Shown one piece after another: positions 4,730 through 60,153 of a DNA stretch of 64,000 nucleotides. The translations under genes were made by a program, and so were the position numbers. The first letter of the stretch is position 1. The number at the start of each line of letters is the position of its first letter. Source of the stretch: Eledone cirrhosa (lineage: Eukaryota); NCBI GenBank assembly GCA_964016885.1, contig OZ024755.1, positions 10,850,001 to 10,914,000 of the forward strand, in the 5' to 3' direction. The notes below the pieces were generated by a model. It did no database searches and was not told where the DNA came from. It worked only from the letters and a program-made list of their open reading frames with translations.

Positions 4730-4869
4730 CCATGTTGTCAAGTATAGTTACGTCCCTTTACGGTCTGAGTTCAAATCCCGTCGAGGTTAACTTTGCCTTA
4801 CCAGGTCGATCAAATAAAGTACCAGTAATGCACTGTGTAATTGCCGGCCTTGTGCCAAAAGTAGAAATA
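4730..4869 (+). mobile_element. 5'-truncated tRNA-derived SINE (family A) with 15-bp TSD
   Basis: B-box-like ctgagttcaaatccc, body ggttaactttgcctt..gtcgat..aaataaagtaccag, tail ccttgtgccaaaagtagaaa; attatatgacatttg duplicated at 4715-4729 and 4870-4884. Confidence 0.85.
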
Positions 4870-13276: not shown

Positions 13277-13841
13277 ATGTGTGTGTGTGTGTGTGTCTGT
13301 GTGTGTGTATGTGTGTGTGTATATATGTGTGTGTGTGTGTGTGTGTATATATGTATGTGTGTGTGTGTCAGGTTGCTCTCGAGTGCTACTGGTAACATGT
13401 AACCCAGTACTACCTGTCTCATGGTCGGGTCGTCGGCGACTAAGCCGGCAACCCCACCAAGCTTGCTTGGTGAGGAGGGTAATATTTGGACACCCTGCGG
13501 GATGAAATACAAGACCCGGCAAAGGGCGGAGTTACTCAGCAGAGTCAACGGCCATCCAAATAGTACTTTTTTTTTCACCTGGGAGTGAAGAGCCCCCTGT
13601 TGTTGTCACAACACCTTTCTAGGAGAGGGAAACTCTGGGAAAAAAACTGCGGCTTAGGAAGCATCCGATGATGTTGACCAGTTCTCCTTTTCGGGTAGTG
13701 TTTTCGATGCTCAGAGAGTGGGATTCGTCGCGTGAAGGCGTTTCCCCACTTAAAAATCTTCAAAGCACAGGCATCGCTTGTTCAAGCTCTGTTACAGGTT
13801 CGTGTGGCTGGCCGTAGCCTAAAAGTGCACCAAACTCTACG

Positions 13842-14959
13842 ATGACAGATGATAACCTTGAGGTCAATGGCAGTAAGTGCTCTGGAACTTATTGTGAAGG
13901 GGTCTGGCCCGGCAGGTGTCCCATGGCACCGCAGCGTGGGCCCGGTCGTCAACCTACAACTGCAAGGAGGTTCAAACCTCTCAATATTCGATGTTGGAAT
14001 GTAAGAACTTTACTGGATTCCCAGTCCAGTAAAACTCGCCCTGAAAGAAGATCTGCTTTGGTGTCAAGGGAACTCGATCGCTATAGCATGGACATCGTTG
14101 TTCTTTCAGAAACGAGATTGGCAGGTGAGGGTCAATTCACAGAACAGAAGGGAGGATATACTTTTTATTGGAGTGGTGGAGCAGAGGGTTGTAGGAGAGA
14201 GGCAGGGGTCGCATTTGCAGTCACGAATGGAATCGTCTCAAATCTCGAATATCTTCCTTGTGGATTCAATGATCGGATAATGTCCATGAGATGCCCTCTG
14301 ATTCAAAACCGCTTTGTGACTCTGGTTAGTGTGTACGCTCCTACTATGTGTGCTAGTGATGATGAAAAACTAAATTTCTACATGTCTTTGAGAGAGGTCA
14401 TCTATGGTATACCTTATGCAGACAAGATTGTCATCCTTGGTGATTTTAATGCACGTGTTGGTAATGACTGGGAAGCTTGGAGTGTGATGGGCAGGCATGG
14501 AGTAGGTAAGTGCAATAACAATGGACTACTTCTGTTGCAGATGTGCACTGAGATGGATCTTTCAGCAGCAATGCAAATATGGATGCATCCAAGTTCCAAG
14601 AAGTGGCACCTTATTGACTCGTTTTAACGAGAAAATGTGATATCAGGGATATCACGTTGGTTCGTGTATTGCGAGGCGCGGAATGTTGGACTGATCATCG
14701 TCTGGTGCGCGCCAAGTTTCAATTTGTTGTGAAGCCCAAAGTAAGGGGGAAGAAGGTTGCTCTTCCAAGACAACTAAACGTGGCTTGTCTGAAAATAGAG
14801 AAAGTCAGAGCTGAGCTGTTGAGGTCCCTTGAGTCCCTGAAATGTGAAAACACTTGGGAATCATTGAAGAAAACCGTCTATGATGTTAGTGCTGGAGTTT
14901 TGGGTCATAACAATAGAAAGCATAAAGACTGGTTCGATGAAAATGATCCAGTGATCTAG
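13842..14959 (+). pseudogene. RTE ORF N-terminus: AP endonuclease, frameshifted near 14625 and stopped at 14957
   Basis: Motifs WNVRTL, RPERRSALV, LSETR, GVAFAV, SVYAPT, LGDFNARVG, WMHPSSKKWHLID, then TDHRLV and DWFDEND. Confidence 0.9.
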
Positions 14960-14984
14960 ACCTTGCTTGAAGAGAAACAAAAAG

Positions 14985-15368
14985 TGGGAGATAGAAGCTC
15001 TTGAAAGAGAGACTTGGCGTGGAATGGTGAATGATGGGGTCCATAATTTTGAGGACAGACGCATAGAGCACGAGAAGATCAAACGGGATGTGCGTAAGCA
15101 ATGCCTTTGGAAACGATCGATGTCTCCATTGGATTGAAGTGCCCTGAGTGTGGAAAAATTTGCTTGAGCAAATCTGGTCTCAGGAGCCTCAGTCAAAGCC
15201 AATGTTCAAAGAGAACCATTGAACTATGATCTCCACGGTGTTGTGAGGGTTCACGGGCAACCTGATACAGGACCTCAAGCCAGGGAGATTCATAGTTGTC
15301 GTCAGTGTGTGAAGGAGTGCAAGTCTCTAGTAGGCTTGAAAAGCCATATCCGAGCGTCCCACATCTGA
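14985..15368 (+). pseudogene. RTE ORF C-terminus with two C2H2 zinc-finger-like motifs (disrupted)
   Basis: Hand translation: [65 protein letters not shown]. Confidence 0.75.
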
Positions 15369-24162: not shown

Positions 24163-25434
24163 GCTCATACAGGAAGCTTTTAAGGAAATGAGACGAGCAT
24201 TTTTAAAATGATGTTTTAAGCGAAATTGATAGACCATTTTATATTTTTCGTCAAAACGAATGCTATTTTTGTTTTTTCATCTATTGTCTTTAAATAAACA
24301 TTACTTGGATGTTTTCGATTGTAATTCACAAAATCAATTTTCGTCCATAAAAAATAAATTGTCATGATTATAAAACCAATTTTCTATTTTTTGTATATGT
24401 ACACGCATACATAATATGACTGGTCGTAACTGCTTATGCTCACCTCAACCACTCAAATGCGTACAAGTTCAGTGTCTTTCTCTATCAATCGTTCAATCTC
24501 TCATTTTCTTTCTTGCTTAAAAACAATTCTTGATTTTAAATAAATATCTGGATGAAGCAATTACATCGTAGAAGAGATAGTTTAGCTATTTAAAGAACAT
24601 GAAATCTGTTGAATTTGCTTTATAATCATCATTTATTTCGTGATGTCACAACGCAATTTTCGTCGCATTGTTTGCGACATAGCAATAGGCACAATTTCAT
24701 TGTTGCTATGGAATTGTCTCAGTGATTATGTTGGAGCGCAATGGCGTTGATACAATGAAATAAATGATATATCTAAAGGGAATTGAACAGTGTTTTTGCG
24801 TCCATTTATTTTAAATGGCCAAAATATATTTTCTACGATGAAATTGTTCCTATTTCAAAACGTCATTTGCAAGACAAGTACAACTCAGAGATATTAAACT
24901 AGTTTAAATAATCTTTAAAATCATATACGCTATTACTCAGTCCACAAAAAGTCTTGCATGTGTCCACTTAAAATAGTGTAACTTACAACATTGAACGTAC
25001 ATATATAGCTTTTAATATAACAGTGAATGGGTCAATGTTGGTTTCGACGAGATATGATCTAGTCCGATCAGCATAAGTGGGTGAACTTTCAACAGATATA
25101 CGTACGCTTCATAATGTAATTCTCGGAAGGTTGAGCGTGATGTGGTGACAAGGTGAGTGGAGGAATTACAATTACAGACCATCTGAAGGGTATTCAAGAA
25201 TATGTTCCACCCAGTTTCCATCACATATACACAAGTATAGACATACATTTTAGGGAGTCTAAGAGATACCAATTTTGCTCAATGTAGGAATTAATACGAA
25301 TCAATATTTCAGAGCATGATAAAATATTATATTGGAAACGCAAATGATATAAAGGCATTTACCTATTTACTTAGAGCATCCCTACTGCAGTTTCATTCAG
25401 CAAAACTCACCATTTAGTACTGTGAAAATCTCAA

Positions 25435-26620: not shown

Positions 26621-27214
26621 ATATGGAAGGTGAGGTTTAAGAAACAAGAGAGCAGGTGGGGCAGACAGGGATTTATTCAAAAGATTCCACAATTTTTTTA
26701 AACCAAAACAGATTTTTAAAATCGGATTATTATTATTGTTATTATTATTATTATTTTTTTAAATTTTTATTATCATTATTATTAGTCTTATTTTAACTGC
26801 GTAGCGTCACAGCATTACCGAGCATAGCTCTGTATGCAGTGTTATTTTGTTGTTTTTTGTGCTGTTATTTCAATTGTATTGAGAGAACTTTTCGTAATAT
26901 GTGTATATGCTATTTTCTATATTTCTATATTTCTATATTTCTATATTTCTATATTTCTAAGTCCTGGGGTTTTGCTTATGTATCAGTGTCTGTGTGTGTT
27001 TTTTATCATGCCCCAAACACTTATTATTATAGGGAGTGTTTCTGTTTTCATCATCTATATTCGTATTATTTCTCTCTTCAAGTATTTATATTTGGATAAT
27101 CATTCGATTGTGGTCTTCTCGATCTCGGCACCGCAAATTATATACACATATATATAGAGAAATGATTTCGTGATTTCTACACGACTAGAAATTTCATTTA
27201 TTTGAAATCTTCAG

Positions 27215-28829: not shown

Positions 28830-28935
28830 AAATATGTACTCAATACGTTGGTAGAGTATAGGCATCTTTATTCTATATAGAAATGACTTTTACACGTCTA
28901 AACATGTTTCAATCATTTGAAATCATCAGCGCAAC
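28830..28935 (-). mobile_element. Penelope-like terminal fragment with degenerate hammerhead core
   Basis: Minus strand CTGATGA-tttcaaatgatt-GAA-ACATGT-T, then gaataaa and tactc..tattgagtac; helices I and II pair poorly. Confidence 0.5.
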
Positions 28936-31999: not shown

Positions 32000-32194
32000 A
32001 CACAAACGCACATACTCACAGATATTCATACACGTATGCACAGAGATACACACAGATATTCATACACGTATGCACAGAGATACACACATACACACGCACA
32101 TACATACACACACCGCAGAAATAGGTGCACTATTGTACTTCGCTGCGTGTGTGTATATAGCATGTTATTATGCAAAGAAATATATATATATATA

Positions 32195-32335
32195 TTAATA
32201 TAGAGCTTCTACAGGACTAGAACTGTTTCATTCGTGAGAAATCATCAGTTATAGTACTGTAGAAGCTCTTCTATATTAAAACATTTATACTCTGCTATGT
32301 ATTGAGTACCTTACTTACTGTGGTTACCTCCGATT
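32195..32335. mobile_element. Fold-back element with hammerhead core (Penelope-like family)
   Basis: Inverted arms gagcttctacag/ctgtagaagctc enclosing minus-strand CTGATGA-tttctcacgaat-GAAA-cagttc; tactc..tattgagtac motif downstream on plus. Confidence 0.6.
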
Positions 32336-33017: not shown

Positions 33018-33559
33018 AATATATATATATATATTATATATATAGTTGAATGAGGGTGTATAAGTGAGTGGTATGGTTTGTGTATGTGTAAGTGTTTCTG
33101 TGTTTTGAGTGCGTCTGGGTGTGTAAATTCTTTTGTAGATGAATATCTCAGCTGTATGCTGTTTATGCCCATGAGCATATCTGATATGCAAATTGGGCTA
33201 CTCAGCCGTTAATATGCATAAAGAAAGTATATACTTTCGGACGTTCAACAATCTGACAGGAAAATATACGTTGCTGACGATAGCTAACAAGCTTGAAACT
33301 AGTACAGCGTTCCTTTTTTGTCAGTGTTGAACAAACGAGCAACGGTGGTTGCTAGACACTGCGGCTTAATACGGGATGTTTGTTTACAAACACACCGAGC
33401 ATTATAATAAATGTTTGGTGAATCCATACGTACATATATATATGTGTGCATGTATGTATGTATATATATATACATACTACTGTACGTCTGTATACATATA
33501 TGTATGTACGTGTACATACTTATATTTATATATATATATATATATAAATTTGCTGTTCC

Positions 33560-34202
33560 CTTTACGGACTGAGTTCAAATCCCGCCGAGGTTAACTTTGC
33601 CTTTCATCCTTACGGGGTCGATAAAATAAAGTACCAGTAATACACTGGGATAATTGCTGGCCTTGTGCCAAAAGTAGAAACAATTATTACTAACAGTAGT
33701 AATTGCTAGTAGAGCGTCGGACAAGAATGCAGCATCGAGTTACTGCTCTTTACGTTCTGAGTTCAAATCTCACCGAGGTTAGCTTTGCCATTCGTCCCGG
33801 CGGTTATTAGTAGTATCTGTAGCGCGACGGACAACAAGCATTGCAGCACAGAGATATGGCCCTTTACGTTCTGAGTTCAAATCTCACTGAGGTTAACTTT
33901 GCCTTTCGTCCTTACGGTGTTGATAAAATAAAGCACCAGTAAATACTAGTAATGCACTGAGGTCGATTTAATCGACTTTCCCCTCCACCCAAAATTGTTG
34001 ACCTTGTGCTTAAAATCAAAGACCATTATATCGGTAGAGGGTCGGACGCCATTGTTTGACCCATAGAGTTACGGCCCTTGTCATTCTGAGTTCAAATCCC
34101 GCCGAGGTTATCTTTGCCTTTCATCCTTACGAGGTCGATAAAATAAAGTACCAGTAATACACTGGGATAATTGCTGGCCTTGTGCCAAAAGTAGAAACAA
34201 AT
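33560..34202 (+). mobile_element. Head-to-tail cluster of four family A SINE copies
   Basis: Four occurrences of ctgagttcaaatc..gaggtta.ctttgcc near 33570, 33757, 33871 and 34086. Confidence 0.9.
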
Positions 34203-34359
34203 ATTCTTATTATTTCGTCTACAATATCTTCATTCATTAATGATGCCCTTCTCCTTCCTATTATTGGATGTAAACCCCACATGTCATTGTTTCTTGTATT
34301 GGCCACAACGTCATACAGCCTTGTCGTCGATTATAAAATCATTCTTACTGTTGCTGCCT

Positions 34360-39352: not shown

Positions 39353-41079
39353 CACCGTGTAACATATTTTTTTCCCCGGTTCTAAGTGTTATTTCATGGT
39401 TTGTTATATCACATTGTTATAAAAAAAAACACTAATATTTAATCAGAAGTTTGGGTTTGTGGTCAGAAGTTTGATATTTCAAAATTTTCATTTTTGCAAG
39501 AAAAAACACATTTTTTTTAAATTTATCAGTTCATATAATTAAATCAACAGAGTATATATTTATTTTATTACACATGCTTATCAAAAGCAAACAAGTAAAA
39601 ACAAATAGCACTTATAAAGCAACTTATACACGTCAGAAATGACTGGATTTCCTGGATGTGCGGTTGTAGTCTAGGTCGCATTCCCGCACTAGCCCCCAGA
39701 TATAGTCCCCCATCATTTTTTTAATTCTAGTGGCTCTGGTACCTCCGCTCTATCTCTTTCACATCTTGGTGGATTCGTTCGCCTTGTTCTTCTGAGTAGG
39801 CGCCCATATTGTCCTTGAATTTGTCCAGGTGAGCGTCCAGCATATGGAGTTTAAGCGACATCCTGCATCCCATGACGCCAAAAGCCTTTATCAGATCCTG
39901 CACCAGTTGTTGGTAGTTTTCAGCTCTGTAGTTGCCCAGGAAGCCCTTAACAACTGCCTTGAAACAGTTCCATGCTGTTCTCTCAATCCTATTGAGCTTA
40001 TGGGGGAACTCGGTAGACTCAAACACCTTCTTTATCTGAGGTCCAACAAAAATTCCACCTTTGATTTTGGCCTCAGATAACTTGGGAAACAACTCAAGAG
40101 GGTACTTAAAAGTGGCTGATTCTTGGTTGAGAGCCTTCACAAACTGCTTCATCAACCCCAACTTAATGTGCAGTGGCGGCATGAGCACAATTCAGGAATC
40201 AACCAGTGGCTCCCACATGACGTTCCGAGTCCCAACTATAAATTCTGTTCGCTGCTCCCAGGTCTTACTTTTGTAGTCGTCAGAAGTGGCTCTGCTGTCC
40301 CAAAGGCAGAGGAAGCATTGGAATTTGATAAAGCCTCCTTGGAGTCCAAGCAGGAAATAAACCATCTTGAAGTCTCCAATGATTTCCCAATTGTACTAGT
40401 TGTATTGCAGAGCTTCCAAGAGGACTTTCACACTGTAGTAATCTTCCTTCAGGCAGACTGAATGAGTAGGGGCAGTGTCGGGAACTTGTTTCCATTGTGG
40501 AGGAGGACAGCCTTCAAACTTGTGGTGGAGCTGTCTATAAATAGCCGCCACTCCTTTGGCACAAACGGCACCCCAATAACGTCAATCAGTCCAGGCATGT
40601 CATGGCAGAAGCAGAGGCCATCCCTAAGAGTGTAAAAGCCTCAGAAAGGTTCGTGTCGACTTCTCTGACTTGTCACCTGCACTTCCTCCTTGCCCAAGTT
40701 CCACTGCTTCATCCTGAAGACGAATGCTTAAAACACAACTTACCCTTTATTCAGGGTGCGAAAATCCAGTATCAATAAATCTCTTTAATCCACTTTTTAA
40801 CAATTTTATACTTTATTGCACTTTTCTAATTTTCTTTAGGTATTACTCTTTATTTTATAATTTTAATTTAACCTGAAACATATATAAAAAAAAAATCATT
40901 TAACATAAGCAACTTAAACTTACATACAACGTAAAATCCAGCAATACAAATAATTCTAGTGAATAGCTTAGAATTTTTACAAACCCAAACTTTTAACTGT
41001 TTAATAGCACTTTTTTATCTATTTGGGACCTAATTACAAGCCAGGAACAGAGAAAAAACTTGTTTATTGTTACACGGTG
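39353..41079 (-). mobile_element. Chapaev3-like (CMC superfamily) DNA transposon, internally deleted
   Basis: 12-bp TIR caccgtgtaaca/tgttacacggtg, TAA on both flanks (39350-39352 and 41080-41082), 14-bp inverted subterminal motif (39447-39460 and 40979-40992), transposase remnant inside; superfamily assignment from recalled CAC termini and TWA TSD. Confidence 0.8.
39633..40728 (-). pseudogene. DDE transposase remnant (N-terminus missing; stops and a frameshift)
   Basis: EWRLFIDSS..LKAVLLHNGN, WEIIGDFKMV..LLGLQGG..CFLCLWDSRA, PPLHIKLGLMKQFVKAL, MSLKLHML..H, SEEQGERIHQD. Confidence 0.85.
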
Positions 41080-41107
41080 TAATCTGAATTTTTCGAATAT
41101 TAATAAT

Positions 41108-41294
41108 TGTTTCTACTTTTGGCACAAGGTCAGCAATTACCCAGTACATTACTGGTACTTTATTTTATCGACCCCGTAAGGATGAAAGCCAAAGTTAACC
41201 CCGGCGGAATTTGAACTCAGATCATAAAGGGACGTAACTCCATACTTCAAAGCATTGTGTCCGACTCTCTATCGATACTGCCAACCCACCGCCC
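41108..41294 (-). mobile_element. Full-length family A SINE with 17-bp TSD
   Basis: Head through tail present; tttcgaatattaataat at 41091-41107 and 41295-41311. Confidence 0.9.
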
Positions 41295-41471: not shown

Positions 41472-41841
41472 GTGTGTGTGTGTGTATTGAAATTTCTGTA
41501 GAAAATAGAAAAGGTCATAGAAGTGAAGAGTATATAATTTTTTTTGCTTTTCTTGATGAGACTTTCCAAGTATTTAGCCATGTTTTATATTGCCTCGTCT
41601 GACGAACGAATGAAGACGTTTCTTTCGTATTCGCCTCATTCGGAAAATCTCTGGTAATGAGGTAATTATATTGTATTGATTTTTATACATTATATATATA
41701 TATATGTGTGTAGAAGTTCTATTTAAACTGTTGGGATACAACAAGCAAATATTTTTATAACTCATATAAAGCACTCAACAAATTATTGGAGTAAAAATAC
41801 GATATATTAACAAATGGAAACTATATTTATAAAACCATATT

Positions 41842-41906
41842 TATTTCATTATACATATTTCAGGGACACCAAGTTAAATTATGGTGTGCTTTCATCAGAT
41901 AAAATA
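41842..41906 (-). ncRNA. Type I hammerhead ribozyme (minus-strand arm)
   Basis: tattttat-CTGATGA-aagcacacca..tggtgtccct-GAA-ATATGTAT-A-atgaaata; helix II has one more mismatch than the plus copy. Confidence 0.65.
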
Positions 41907-42007
41907 TAATATAGATCAGTTTTATAAATAAATATTGACTATCCAACAGAAATGGTCGCATTCTTTAAGGGTATGTCAATATTTATTTATAAAACTAATC
42001 TATATTA

Positions 42008-42072
42008 TATTTTATCTGATGAAAGCACACCATAATTTAACTTGGTGTCCTTGAAATATGTATAATGAAATA
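42008..42072 (+). ncRNA. Type I hammerhead ribozyme
   Basis: Helix I tattttat/atgaaata (8 bp), CUGAUGA 42016-42022, helix II aagcacacca/tggtgtcctt (9 of 10 pairs), GAAA 42053-42056, self-complementary helix III AUAUGUAU, predicted cleavage after AUA at 42064. Confidence 0.8.
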
Positions 42073-42117
42073 AATATGGTTTTATAAATATAGTTTCCAT
42101 TTGTTAATATATCGTAT

Positions 42118-42230
<113 letters not shown>

Positions 42231-52365: not shown

Positions 52366-52889
52366 TAACAAATTATATAATGATTTAATATGCACCTTAA
52401 AAAATGGCTGGAAATGTTTTAATCGTGTTTTGCTAGATCTTTCGTTGTCCTGCTGTATTTGTCATGTCACATGTAGACGTAAGTATGACTGAATGGTTAA
52501 GACACAACTACGTGGAACCTTGGGCAAATATCTTTACCACAGTCTGAGGTTGACCCGAGATTTATGAATGAAATTCAGTACACGGAATCTGTTTGGAAAA
52601 CCGCCTGATAAAATGTACCTGTAATACAAATGTTTGTTATTGTTGCTGTCATTGTTGTTGAAGACTATGATTGTGTTTTGTTGTTGATGATGATGATGAT
52701 GGTGGTGGTGGTGATGTTGTGGATGATGATCTGGATGATGTTGTTGATGAAGTGCATGTGACAATGTTATAGTTGTTAATGAAGTTGTTATTGTTGGTGT
52801 TGTCGTTGATGTTATTGTTGCTATTGTTGTTGTTATTGTCGTTGCATTAGTTAACGTTGGAGAAGTTTTTGATGTAGTTATTGTCGTTA

Positions 52890-55235
52890 TATTTTTTGCT
52901 GTAGTTGATGCTGTTATTGATATTATTGTTGTTGTTATTGATGGAGTTGTTATTGTCCTTATACCTGTTGTTGTTGTTGTTGTCATTGATGGAGTTGTTA
53001 TTGTCGTTATACCTGTTGTTGATGGAGTTGTTATTGTCCTTATACCTGTTGTTGATGGAGTTGTTATTGTCGTTATACCTGTTGTTGATGGAGTTGTTAT
53101 TGTCCTTATACCTGTTATTGATGGAGTTGTTATTGTCGTTATACCTGTTGTTGATGGAGTTGTTATTGTCCTTATACCTGTTGTTGTTGTTGTTGTCATT
53201 GATGGAGTTGTTATTGTCGTTATACCTGTTGTTGATGGAGTTGTTATTGTCCTTATACCTGTTGTTGATGGAGTTGTTATTGTCGTTATACCTGTTGTTG
53301 ATGGAGTTGTTATTGTCGTTATACCTGTTGTTGATGGAGTTGTTATTGTCGTTATACCTGTTATTGATGGAGTTGTTATTGTCCTTATACCTGTTATTGA
53401 TGGAGTTGTTATTGTCGTTATACCTGTTGTTGATGGAGTTGTTATTGTCCTTATACCTGTTGTTGTTGTTGTTGTCATTGATGGAGTTGTTATTGTCCTT
53501 ATACCTGTTGTTGATGGAGTTGTTATTGTCCTTATACCTGTTGTTGATGGAGTTGTTATTGTCGTTATACCTGTTGTTGATGGAGTTGTTATTGTCGTTA
53601 TACCTGTTGTTGATGGAGTTGTTATTGTCCTTATACCTGTTATTGATGGAGTTGTTATTGTCGTTATACCTGTTGTTGATGGAGTTGTTATTGTCCTTAT
53701 ACCTGTTGTTGTTGTTGTTGTCATTGATGGAGTTGTTATTGTCCTTATACCTGTTGTTGATGGAGTTGTTATTGTCCTTATACCTGTTGTTGATGGAGTT
53801 GTTATTGTCGTTATACCTGTTGTTGATGGAGTTGTTATTGTCGTTATACCTGTTGTTGATGGAGTTGTTATTGTCCTTATACCTGTTATTGATGGAGTTG
53901 TTATTGTCCTTATACCTGTTATTGATGGAGTTGTTATTGTCGTTATACCTGTTGTTGATGGAGTTGTTATTGTCCTTATACCTGTTATTGATGGAGTTGT
54001 TATTGTCGTTATACCTGTTGTTGATGGAGTTGTTATTGTCCTTATACCTGTTGTTGTTGTTGTTGTCATTGATGGAGTTGTTATTGTCGTTATACCTGTT
54101 GTTGATGGAGTTGTTATTGTCCTTATACCTGTTGTTGATGGAGTTGTTATTGTCGTTATACCTGTTGTTGATGGAGTTGTTATTGTCCTTATACCTGTTA
54201 TTGATGGAGTTGTTATTGTCCTTATACCTGTTATTGATGGAGTTGTTATTGTCGTTATACCTGTTGTTGATGGAGTTGTTATTGTCCTTATACCTGTTGT
54301 TGTTGTTGTTGTCATTGATGGAGTTGTTATTGTCGTTATACCTGTTGTTGATGGAGTTGTTATTGTCCTTATACCTGTTGTTGATGGAGTTGTTATTGTC
54401 GTTATACCTGTTGTTGATGGAGTTGTTATTGTCCTTATACCTGTTATTGATGGAGTTGTTATTGTCCTTATACCTGTTATTGATGGAGTTGTTATTGTCG
54501 TTATACCTGTTGTTGATGGAGTTGTTATTGTCGTTATACCTGTTGTTGATGGAGTTGTTATTGTCGTTATACCTGTTGTTGATGGAGTTGTTATTGTCTT
54601 TATACCTGTTGTTGATGGAGTTGTTATTGTCGTTATACCTGTTGTTGATGGAGTTGTTATTGTCGTTATACCTGTTGTTGATGGAGTTGTTATTGTCGTT
54701 ATACCTGTTGTTGATGGAGTTGTTTTTGTCGTTATACCTGTTGTTGATGGAGTTGTTATTGTCGTTATACCTGTTGTTGATGGAGTTGTTATTGTCGTTA
54801 TACCTGTTGTTGATGGAGTTGTTTTTGTCGTTATACCTGTTGTTGATGGAGTTGTTATTGTCGTTATACCTGTTGTTGATGGAGTTGTTATTGTCGTTAT
54901 ACCTGTTGTTGATGGAGTTGTTTTTGTCGTTATACCTGTTGTTGATGGAGTTGTTATTGTCGTTATACCTGTTGTTGATGGAGTTGTTTTTGTCGTTATA
55001 CCTGTTGTTGATGGAGTTGTTATTGTCGTTATACCTGTTGTTGATGGAGTTGTTATTGTCGTTATACCTGTTGTTGATGGAGTTGTTTTTGTCGTTATTC
55101 CTGTTGTTGTTGTTGTTATTGATGGAGTTGTTATTGTCCTTATACCTGTTGTTGTTGATGGTTGTTTTGTTTGTCGTTATATCTGTTGTTCTTGTTGTTA
55201 TTGTCCTTATACTTGTTGTTGTTGTTATTGATGAT
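52890..55235. repeat. 33-bp VNTR (gatggagttgttattgtc[c/g]ttatacctgtt[g/a]tt) with 48-bp variant units
   Basis: 11-aa periodicity in three long ORFs (ITTPSTTGITT, NNNSINNRYND, LLLMELLLSLY). Confidence 0.95.
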
Positions 55236-55782
55236 GTTAAATCTATTTCACCGTGACTGTCTTTCATTTCCTGTTGGTCGTTTCAACAAAACTAACATTG
55301 TTTTTATATTAAAATACAAGTTTATTTTTTCTCTTTTCTTTTCCAAAATGTCATTGTTTAAGCATTTCATTTACATTGTTATATTTTTTGCTTTCATTTA
55401 ATGATTTCGTAACATATATTTCTGTATCATTATTATCATTATCATAAGTAGTAGTATTGGTAGTGATAGTGGCGCTGGTGGTGGTGGTGTCAGTGGTGGT
55501 GTTTTTGCTGCTGTTGTTGTTGCTGTCGTCTCTGTGGACATAAGAAACTTATTTTATATTTTCCTTAATATTTATGTCACTGATGGTGATTAGAAAGTGG
55601 TCTTTCACGCAATATTTATGTGGTTGCATGTGTGTTTGCGTGCGCGCGCGCGCGTGTGTGTGTATGTGTGTGTGTGTGTGATTATGTGAGCATATGTGTG
55701 GGTGGTTGTGTGAGAATATATCTGTATATGCATGTATGTTTCTTTCTCTGTTTGTGTATACGTTTTTGTATGCGTTTCTATC

Positions 55783-59242: not shown

Positions 59243-59362
59243 CACGCACATATAATATATATATACATACACAAAGCTACATTATCTACATATATCTATA
59301 TTATATTACTATAATGTCAATATATATATATATGTATGTATATGTATATATATATATATATA

Positions 59363-59500
59363 CAATGATATTAAATAAATGGAAATTATATTTATAAAAC
59401 CATATTAAATATAGTTTCCATTTATTTAATATCATTGAATATTATACTCCAGAAAAGTGTCGAGTGCTCTGAATCAGTTATAAACATTTATATTTGTTGA
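59363..59500 (+). mobile_element. Truncated fold-back copy of the hammerhead element (ribozyme lost)
   Basis: ~32-bp arms caatgatattaaataaatggaaa../..tttccatttatttaatatcattg followed by tactccagaaaagtgtcgagtgc..tcagttataaa. Confidence 0.7.
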
Positions 59501-59836
59501 ATTACCAATATCTCTTCCGCTTATACATATATATATATATAAACCAATGAAATTACTTCTCGAAAAACCTGGCATTTCGAGCCACTTTTTCCATATAAAA
59601 CAAGTAACATTCAGAGACCAACCAGATGTGAGAAAAACCACAGACCCTCCATCTCAACTCACCTTTTGAAAAGCAGAAGAACTGCGAAACCGGTAAAGGA
59701 ACCAAATAAATATATATATTTTTTAAAAAAATAAGACTCCAGTTGCATTTTCGATTTCATCTCTTTTTCTTTATATATATATATATATATATATACAATA
59801 TTAAATAAATGGAAACTATATCTATAAAACCATATT

Positions 59837-59902
59837 TATTTCATTATATATATTTCAGGGATAACATATTAACAATATGCTATGCCTTCCTCAGACAAAA
59901 TA
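59837..59902 (-). ncRNA. Type I hammerhead ribozyme (minus-strand arm)
   Basis: Mirror of 59960-60025 with one substitution in helix II. Confidence 0.75.
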
Positions 59903-59959
59903 CAATATAAACAGTTATATAAATGTCGAATCTATTTATCTATAAAACTGTTTATATTG

Positions 59960-60025
59960 TATTTTGTCTGAGGAAGGTATAGCATATTGTTAATATGTTA
60001 TCCCTGAAATATATATAATGAAATA
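59960..60025 (+). ncRNA. Type I hammerhead ribozyme
   Basis: Helix I tattttgt/atgaaata, CUGAGGA 59968-59974, helix II aggtatagcatatt/aatatgttatccct (13 of 14 pairs), GAAA 60006-60009, palindromic helix III AUAUAUAU, predicted cleavage after 60017. Confidence 0.8.
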
Positions 60026-60153
60026 AATATGGTTTTATAGATATAGTTTCCATTTATTTAATATTGTAAATATACTCCAAATATTTGTCGAGTGCTTTTA
60101 TATCAGTTATAAATATTTACTAGTTGTAACACAACAATTTTAAATATAACTTT

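Follow-up and report, generated by a model that had tools for sequence, protein, structure and literature searches.

The 409-base palindromic repeat at 41709-42117 (hereafter element A), which bears a hammerhead-ribozyme motif on each strand, belongs to an abundant palindromic repeat family without ORFs, which is likely a non-autonomous derivative of a Penelope-like retrotransposon (PLE), probably from the Hydra clade. By its anatomy, it is likely a PLE reduced to a pseudo-LTR (pLTR), an inverted copy of that pLTR and a one-sided tail, and its palindrome is best explained by PLE-type replication. An earlier note on this DNA had presented the element as a single special locus. That view was not sustained, as two more copies lie in the window (the whole stretch of 64 kb that was analyzed) and many in four sequencing runs.

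Anatomy of the element

The features of element A, in order along the window, are as follows.

41691-41705, no strand assigned: (TA)n microsatellite at the tail end, from its sequence the likely insertion target
41709-41796, minus strand: one-sided tail of 88 nt that extends the long arm only, with no partner on the other side
41770-41792, minus strand: tail stem-loop motif (ACTC, stem-loop, 2 nt, GAGT, GCT), kept in copies A, B and C and 57 nt past the cut in A
41797-41939, minus strand: long arm, pLTR-like, 143 bp by arm alignment
41835-41914, minus strand: type I hammerhead motif (CUGAUGA 41898-41892, GAAA 41861-41858, predicted cut 41850/41849)
41940-41974, no strand assigned: centre or spacer of 35 bp, which continues the stem imperfectly
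41975-42117, plus strand: short arm, the inverted copy, 143 bp, ending at a TA-rich site 50-53 nt past the predicted cut
42000-42079, plus strand: type I hammerhead motif (CUGAUGA 42016-42022, GAAA 42053-42056, predicted cut 42064/42065 in standard numbering)
42118-42227, no strand assigned: (TA)n microsatellite at the short-arm end, from sequence

Recomputing the alignment reproduced the 143-bp arms and 35-bp spacer described earlier, with 141 of 143 arm positions identical (2 mismatches). Arms and spacer together occupy 41797-42117, and 41709-41796 is an unpaired extension of the left arm. Both ends of the element adjoin (TA)n. Inspection of its ORFs revealed no reverse transcriptase or endonuclease frame, and so element A lacks the telomerase-like RT and GIY-YIG domain by which autonomous PLEs are recognized. 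An inverted terminal copy beside a pLTR-like repeat, together with a one-sided tail, is the arrangement of non-autonomous PLE derivatives, and it was found in all three window copies. The head-to-tail tandem units of non-LTR retrozymes, each with its own hammerhead, are not present in element A.

An abundant repeat family

Two additional copies were found by BLAST within the window.

59793-60153, opposite orientation to A: copy B, with short arm, 9-nt centre (59925-59933), long arm and tail
59952-60032, plus strand, and 59830-59910, minus strand: hammerhead motifs of copy B, whose helix II differs from that of A
59360-59520, no strand assigned: copy C, both arms beginning downstream of the cut site, with the tail and no ribozyme

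These make three copies in 64 kb with the common layout (TA)n, short arm, centre, long arm, tail, (TA)n. Aligned with each other, the two arms of copy B show 128 matches, a single mismatch and 4 internal gap columns, and A and B arms share about 110-111 matches over 135-138 positions. The tail of A recurs in copy B (71 matches in 93 columns) and in copy C (57 of 93). Copy C, which begins 7-9 nt past the cut site, consists of no more than the outer parts and the tail; it may stem from cleaved RNA or from a deletion of the centre. Among the 22 variable columns of the A and B arms, 19 group by element and none by arm type.

Four of the 16 listed runs (X1, X5, X6 and X14; the small-share runs X7-X13 were set aside) were aligned to the long arm and centre. 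Long-arm matches amounted to 6377 contigs in X1, 57 in X5, 23 in X6 and 29438 of 12.5 million raw reads in X14, a reduced-representation library whose read count gives no copy number. Among the opposite-strand joints listed for X14, the A-type centre accounts for 738 of 847 reads and four other centres for the remaining 109; moreover, diverged spacer versions follow the arm in X5 and X6, which carry other organism codes. At the short-arm end, the loose ends in the reads are (TA)n. The dependence of the inversion on raw reads, raised in the earlier note, was settled at the family level: X14 reads cross the inverted junction and the spacer, so that the inversion is not in general an assembly artefact, the left flank of element A itself being without depth, as reads were cut at repeats over 41600-41717. 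Overall, the family centre is largely fixed, its ends are conserved and the inversion is real. The two differences between the arms of A are common family alleles (41863 in 1756 of 2254 plus-strand reads, 41917 in about a third), and therefore they fit inheritance of the whole palindrome, or the use of two templates, as well as they fit a rebuilding of one arm.

Two other interpretations of these data were considered and set aside. Random 5' truncation at each insertion was dropped, as the centre is mostly fixed in reads. A fall in contig depth near the cut (X5, 4287 at 41834-41846 vs 551 at 41860-41872) is only a lead to cleavage, because helix II divergence breaks alignments, depth gives no copy number, and the minor joints 41826/41858 and 41916/41876 fall on both sides of the cut.

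The hammerhead motifs and their conservation

Both motifs of element A point outward, each with an 8-bp helix I that resumes after a bulge for another 7 pairs, a long helix II and a helix III of 8 self-complementary nt, which on the plus strand is AUAUGUAU at 42056-42063. A hammerhead descriptor (helix I at least 5, helix II at least 1, helix III at least 3) matched four times in the 64-kb window, always within this repeat family, where 100 shuffles gave 0.01 matches on average, and the four matches possess the type I core, i.e., CUGANGA, GAAA, UH and three helices in type I order. A complete type I hammerhead had been claimed for each strand. The motifs are confirmed, far above chance, with two features that the note does not mention: an A.C mismatch at the second helix II pair of the minus-strand motif of A and a first helix II pair that is A-U in all four motifs instead of the usual G-C. 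The G10.1-C11.1 pair after an unpaired base, typical of PLE minimal hammerheads, is accordingly not found. A search of the window against Rfam returned no match at the gathering threshold and no hammerhead family among 11 weak matches, and a covariance model built from the four motifs recovered no other member there.

As a monomer, helix III comprises only two A-U pairs, and the hammerhead fold lies 4.5-6.4 kcal/mol above the minimum free energy in all four motifs. Such a weak predicted monomer fold is as expected for dimer-type motifs. In the predicted dimer, 8 of 8 helix III positions pair in both A and B, as in the palindromic helix III of PLE minimal hammerheads, with a predicted self-duplex of only -2.2 and -3.2 kcal/mol. 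The proposed link to Penelope-associated, dimer-type hammerheads is supported by this palindromic helix III and by passages of PMC4209133, PMC6765202 and the PMC8557442 supplement.

None of the 19 variants listed within 41835-41914 falls on a core base. Nine lie in loops or in the bulge and ten at paired positions, where seven keep or restore the pair and three break it relative to the reference; among the latter, the one at 41867 is matched by a listed change at its partner, 41886. When the A and B motifs are combined, 99% of 104 cells pair vs 36-54% in slid controls, and three helix II pairs change on both sides between the two elements; the covariation score, drawn from only two independent elements, was reached by 7 of 500 shuffles. 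In addition, loose-end sequences in the reads reveal subfamilies in which helix II has other stems and the free position 7 other bases. Conservation of the ribozyme structure points to selection on an RNA intermediate, as far as sequence comparison can indicate. The hammerhead is likely kept by selection in source copies, and we infer that the inversion produced the second ribozyme incidentally.

Elsewhere in the window, three 23-nt CUGANGA...GAAA motifs with similar spacing were noticed on the minus strand (27192-27214, 28907-28929 and 32226-32248), the one at 32226 lying within an inverted repeat (32185-32289) and having a GUC triplet. They are likely decayed hammerheads of another repeat family.

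A probable affinity to the Hydra clade

Element A combines (TA)n insertion with a hammerhead near the 3' end, the pair of traits that characterizes the Hydra clade; the protein criteria of the clade (RWK, DKT, CxCX5C, no CCHH) concern a product that element A does not encode. The Hydra-clade PLEs Penelope-13_HM, Hydra-2_Amil and Hydra-1_Obim (PMC8557442) resemble A in their (TA)n target and in a type I hammerhead placed shortly before the TA-rich end. A stem-loop motif after that end is a further likeness, as is the second hammerhead of Penelope-13_HM, where an inverted copy has an identical hammerhead on the other strand (PMC8557442 supplement). According to the corresponding portions of the same supplement, counted or compared by eye, (TA)n is listed for 26 of 27 Hydra PLE families, three Hydra consensus sequences end about 36-47 nt past the cut at a TA-rich site, and four of six new Hydra-clade consensus sequences have GCYC, stem-loop, bulge, GRGC, ACT after the TA-rich site or at the very start, one of them imperfectly. 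The Hydra-clade hammerhead rows given there also show an extra facing pair.

At the level of sequence, A has only a structural motif in common with Hydra ends, with no homology to a listed member shown in the portion compared, and A differs from the members described there in its longer helices I and II, its AU-only helix III and its want of an ORF. Four short family motifs were absent from the searched part of the PMC8557442 supplement, and pattern scans of metagenome (two scans), viral and prokaryote collections gave 0 matches and no autonomous partner. A pattern for the tail motif, drawn after both sets had been seen, matched four times in the window, three of these in the family, vs 0.25 in shuffles. 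Taken together, the target, the ribozyme position and the tail stem-loop point, somewhat better than evenly, to a Hydra-type partner.

Tail hairpins were rejected as statistical evidence, with folding z values of -0.04 (A) and -2.1 (B) and no two-sided changes. Hydra-1_Obim, the one octopus Hydra element in the part of the list available, is not supported as the partner, its ribozyme and 3' end being by eye unlike those of the family.

Two other loci of the window may be mentioned here. At 33266-33312 (plus strand) lies a separate compact type I hammerhead, with a 6-bp helix I, a 4-bp helix II flanked by U/U and a palindromic ACUAGU helix III. It was the only match of a stricter descriptor (0 of 200 shuffles), and its pattern is like that of Hydra-clade rows in the consulted PMC8557442 supplement. 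The segment 19050-19210 (minus strand) is (TA)n-flanked and contains a 13-bp inverted repeat, a decayed hammerhead-like half and the tail stem-loop motif; by eye it is near the Hydra-2_Amil tail as given there, and it is likely the 3' remnant of another Hydra-type element.

Comparison with known systems

The layout of element A has close parallels among PLE ends. An inverted 5'-truncated copy often accompanies PLE insertions, together with a tail of 30-40 bp on one end (PMC8557442); the tail of A has 88 nt. In Pen2a_Av from Adineta, the inverted pLTR is adjacent to the direct one and 37 bp shorter, with a 31-bp tail on one end (PMC3846280). Head-to-head is the commonest pLTR form, and that work ascribes it to self-priming at palindromes in the junction, offering no more than a hypothesis on how inverted pLTRs arise. 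As described for Pen2a_Av and in fig. 2 of PMC8557442, the ends of EN+ PLEs and element A thus have in common a head-to-head inverted pair in which one copy is shorter by about 35-37 bp at the junction, a tail confined to one end and an AT-rich target. Unlike them, A has no ORF and no second direct pLTR, the pair being the whole unit and present in high copy.

The dual minimal hammerheads of Schistosoma (PMC4209133) lie 100-700 bp apart on opposite strands, with 118 bp between the cores in A, and share with A the palindromic helix III and the U-rich 5' side; in contrast to A, they have G10.1-C11.1 and a short helix I. One sentence of the relevant passage describes them as truncated PLEs, and no fixed-centre family is mentioned in it. 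Animal non-LTR retrozymes (PMC7229834; bioRxiv 10.64898/2026.07.22.740005) are likewise ORF-less, with a type I hammerhead, and are proposed to be pLTR-derived and PLE-mobilised. Nevertheless, retrozymes are head-to-tail tandems that can dimerise in cis and yield circles, which the head-to-head, dispersed A cannot do. In the sections available, published ORF-less PLE derivatives are tandem retrozymes (bioRxiv 10.64898/2026.07.22.740005, PMC7229834, PMC6765202).

A likely mechanism and its alternatives

Judging from the anatomy and the PLE papers, an RNA most likely starts at or near the centre and extends over one arm as well as the tail. A PLE protein supplied from elsewhere would bind the tail, nick (TA)n and reverse-transcribe this RNA. 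The centre stem would then let the cDNA end fold back, or serve as the joint between two cDNAs, each primed on one of the nicked strands; the second arm would thereby be rebuilt up to the internal TA-rich site, leaving a tail on one side only. The hammerhead would work in dimeric form or with the aid of a protein, and only on centre-started RNA. According to PMC11167929, both strands of AT-rich DNA are cut and extended by purified Poseidon protein, which starts at two RNA sites bounding the tail; the Poseidon hammerhead cuts only with protein and is dispensable for insertion in vitro. Minimal hammerheads of Schistosoma cleave poorly, only as dimers (PMC4209133), and 8 of 9 predicted Xenopus hammerhead dimers did not cleave, as stated in a section of a preprint (bioRxiv 10.64898/2026.07.22.740005). 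The microsatellites and the SINE of the window suggest an octopus as host. Recently active Penelope families are on record in octopus genomes (PMC13282606, PMC8967140).

The same PLE origin would also be compatible with copying of the whole palindrome from palindromic masters, the RT unwinding the hairpin and gene conversion evening the arms, and we regard this as a reasonable possibility, short of the favoured one. The fixed, conserved centre agrees with it, and the occurrence of A's two arm differences as common family alleles slightly favours it; yet no variable column of the 22 groups by arm type, and a 143-bp hairpin RNA would be a poor template with no need of a working ribozyme, the core of which is nevertheless conserved.

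More speculatively, the family could be a "foldback retrozyme", a PLE parasite without genes that rebuilds itself: at every insertion, reverse transcription of its centre-started RNA would make a palindrome, which silences its own ribozyme in read-through RNA, with short copies such as C recording cleavage in vivo; we offer this reading tentatively, and consider it rather improbable in its full form.

A foldback or MITE-type DNA transposon that captured a hammerhead within its terminal inverted repeats is improbable. The long inverted arms, the TA at the ends, the absence of an ORF and the high copy number are what such an element would have, and a structure-based annotator could class A so. 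MITEs and foldback elements are defined by inverted repeats at both termini and a target duplication, whereas each of the three copies in the window has a conserved tail beyond one of its arms, any duplication being unreadable in (TA)n; moreover, DNA transposition leaves unexplained why ribozyme core and pairing are conserved while the loops vary.

Read-through RNA

The whole of element A is predicted to fold as one hairpin of -221 to -226 kcal/mol, in line with the duplex that the earlier note had foreseen for read-through RNA. The note had further proposed a choice between self-cleavage and duplex formation in such RNA, the antisense arm being made first. We moved the transcript start along the element and predicted helix probabilities at equilibrium, for the monomer only. 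Helix I reached 0.31 (plus strand) and 0.60 (minus strand) only for starts from the inner end of the arm to about 10 nt beyond the spacer; it was at most 0.07 from the 20-nt start, and helices I and II fell to 0.00 from at least 60 nt into the antisense arm. The 0.00 probability of both helices in read-through RNA makes the proposed choice unlikely, and the opposite strandedness of the motifs precludes a dimer within one transcript. The prediction is that both ribozymes are locked in the long hairpin in read-through RNA, where the duplex is a plausible, putative Dicer/ADAR substrate.

A host-selected RNA switch at this locus, with read-through RNA either cleaving itself or becoming a Dicer/ADAR substrate, is on these grounds highly improbable: both motifs are nearly intact and the predicted duplex is very stable, but the predicted ribozyme helices vanish in read-through RNA, and the layout is common to a large repeat family in which nothing marks copy A as special. 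Finally, an assembly artefact or chance motif is extremely improbable, for in spite of the uncovered flank of A's locus in the four runs and its AT-rich surroundings, the arms differ at two sites, a second, diverged palindromic copy is present, raw reads of the family cross the centre and 0.01 matches are expected per window by chance.

Novelty and meaning

PLE remnants with hammerhead pairs on opposite strands have been published before and each ingredient is known, so that a single locus of this kind is unsurprising. No high-copy, ORF-less family whose whole unit is an inverted pair of fixed centre came to light in the literature searched, most subscription papers and Repbase/Dfam lying outside that search, and the supplement and deposited repeat library of the octopus study PMC13282606 may already contain the family under another label.

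A minimal many-copy unit of 0.4 kb, consisting of inverted pair, ribozyme and tail, defines a cis-acting minimum and offers junction statistics. The role of the hammerhead in endonuclease-bearing PLEs is called unclear in PMC8557442. Were the family indeed a foldback retrozyme, a tally of junctions over thousands of copies would test whether PLE hammerheads cut during transposition, as well as the origin of inverted pLTRs and tails; the family would also supply 140-bp dsRNA on a large scale to a host that probably edits its RNA heavily. Long perfect hairpins would arise wherever the many copies are read through, and misclassification of the family as MITEs by repeat annotators is to be expected.

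Other features of the window

A broken LINE fragment occupies 13818-15205 (plus strand), and its first frame matches Exo_endo_phos (E 2e-7). The 154-aa frame at 39727-40191 (minus strand) has no Pfam match and looks like what we take to be a DNA-transposon remnant. A SINE-like repeat at 41096-41279, presumably akin to octopus SINEs, has more than 10 copies in the window, among them those at 4732, 6355, 33557-34214, 35370, 44358, 52155 and 57278. Units of about 24 nt are repeated in tandem over 52534-55282, in a long array that is open in several frames, and an old imperfect inverted repeat at 24558-24846, with 65% identity over about 300 bp, is possibly a decayed MITE.
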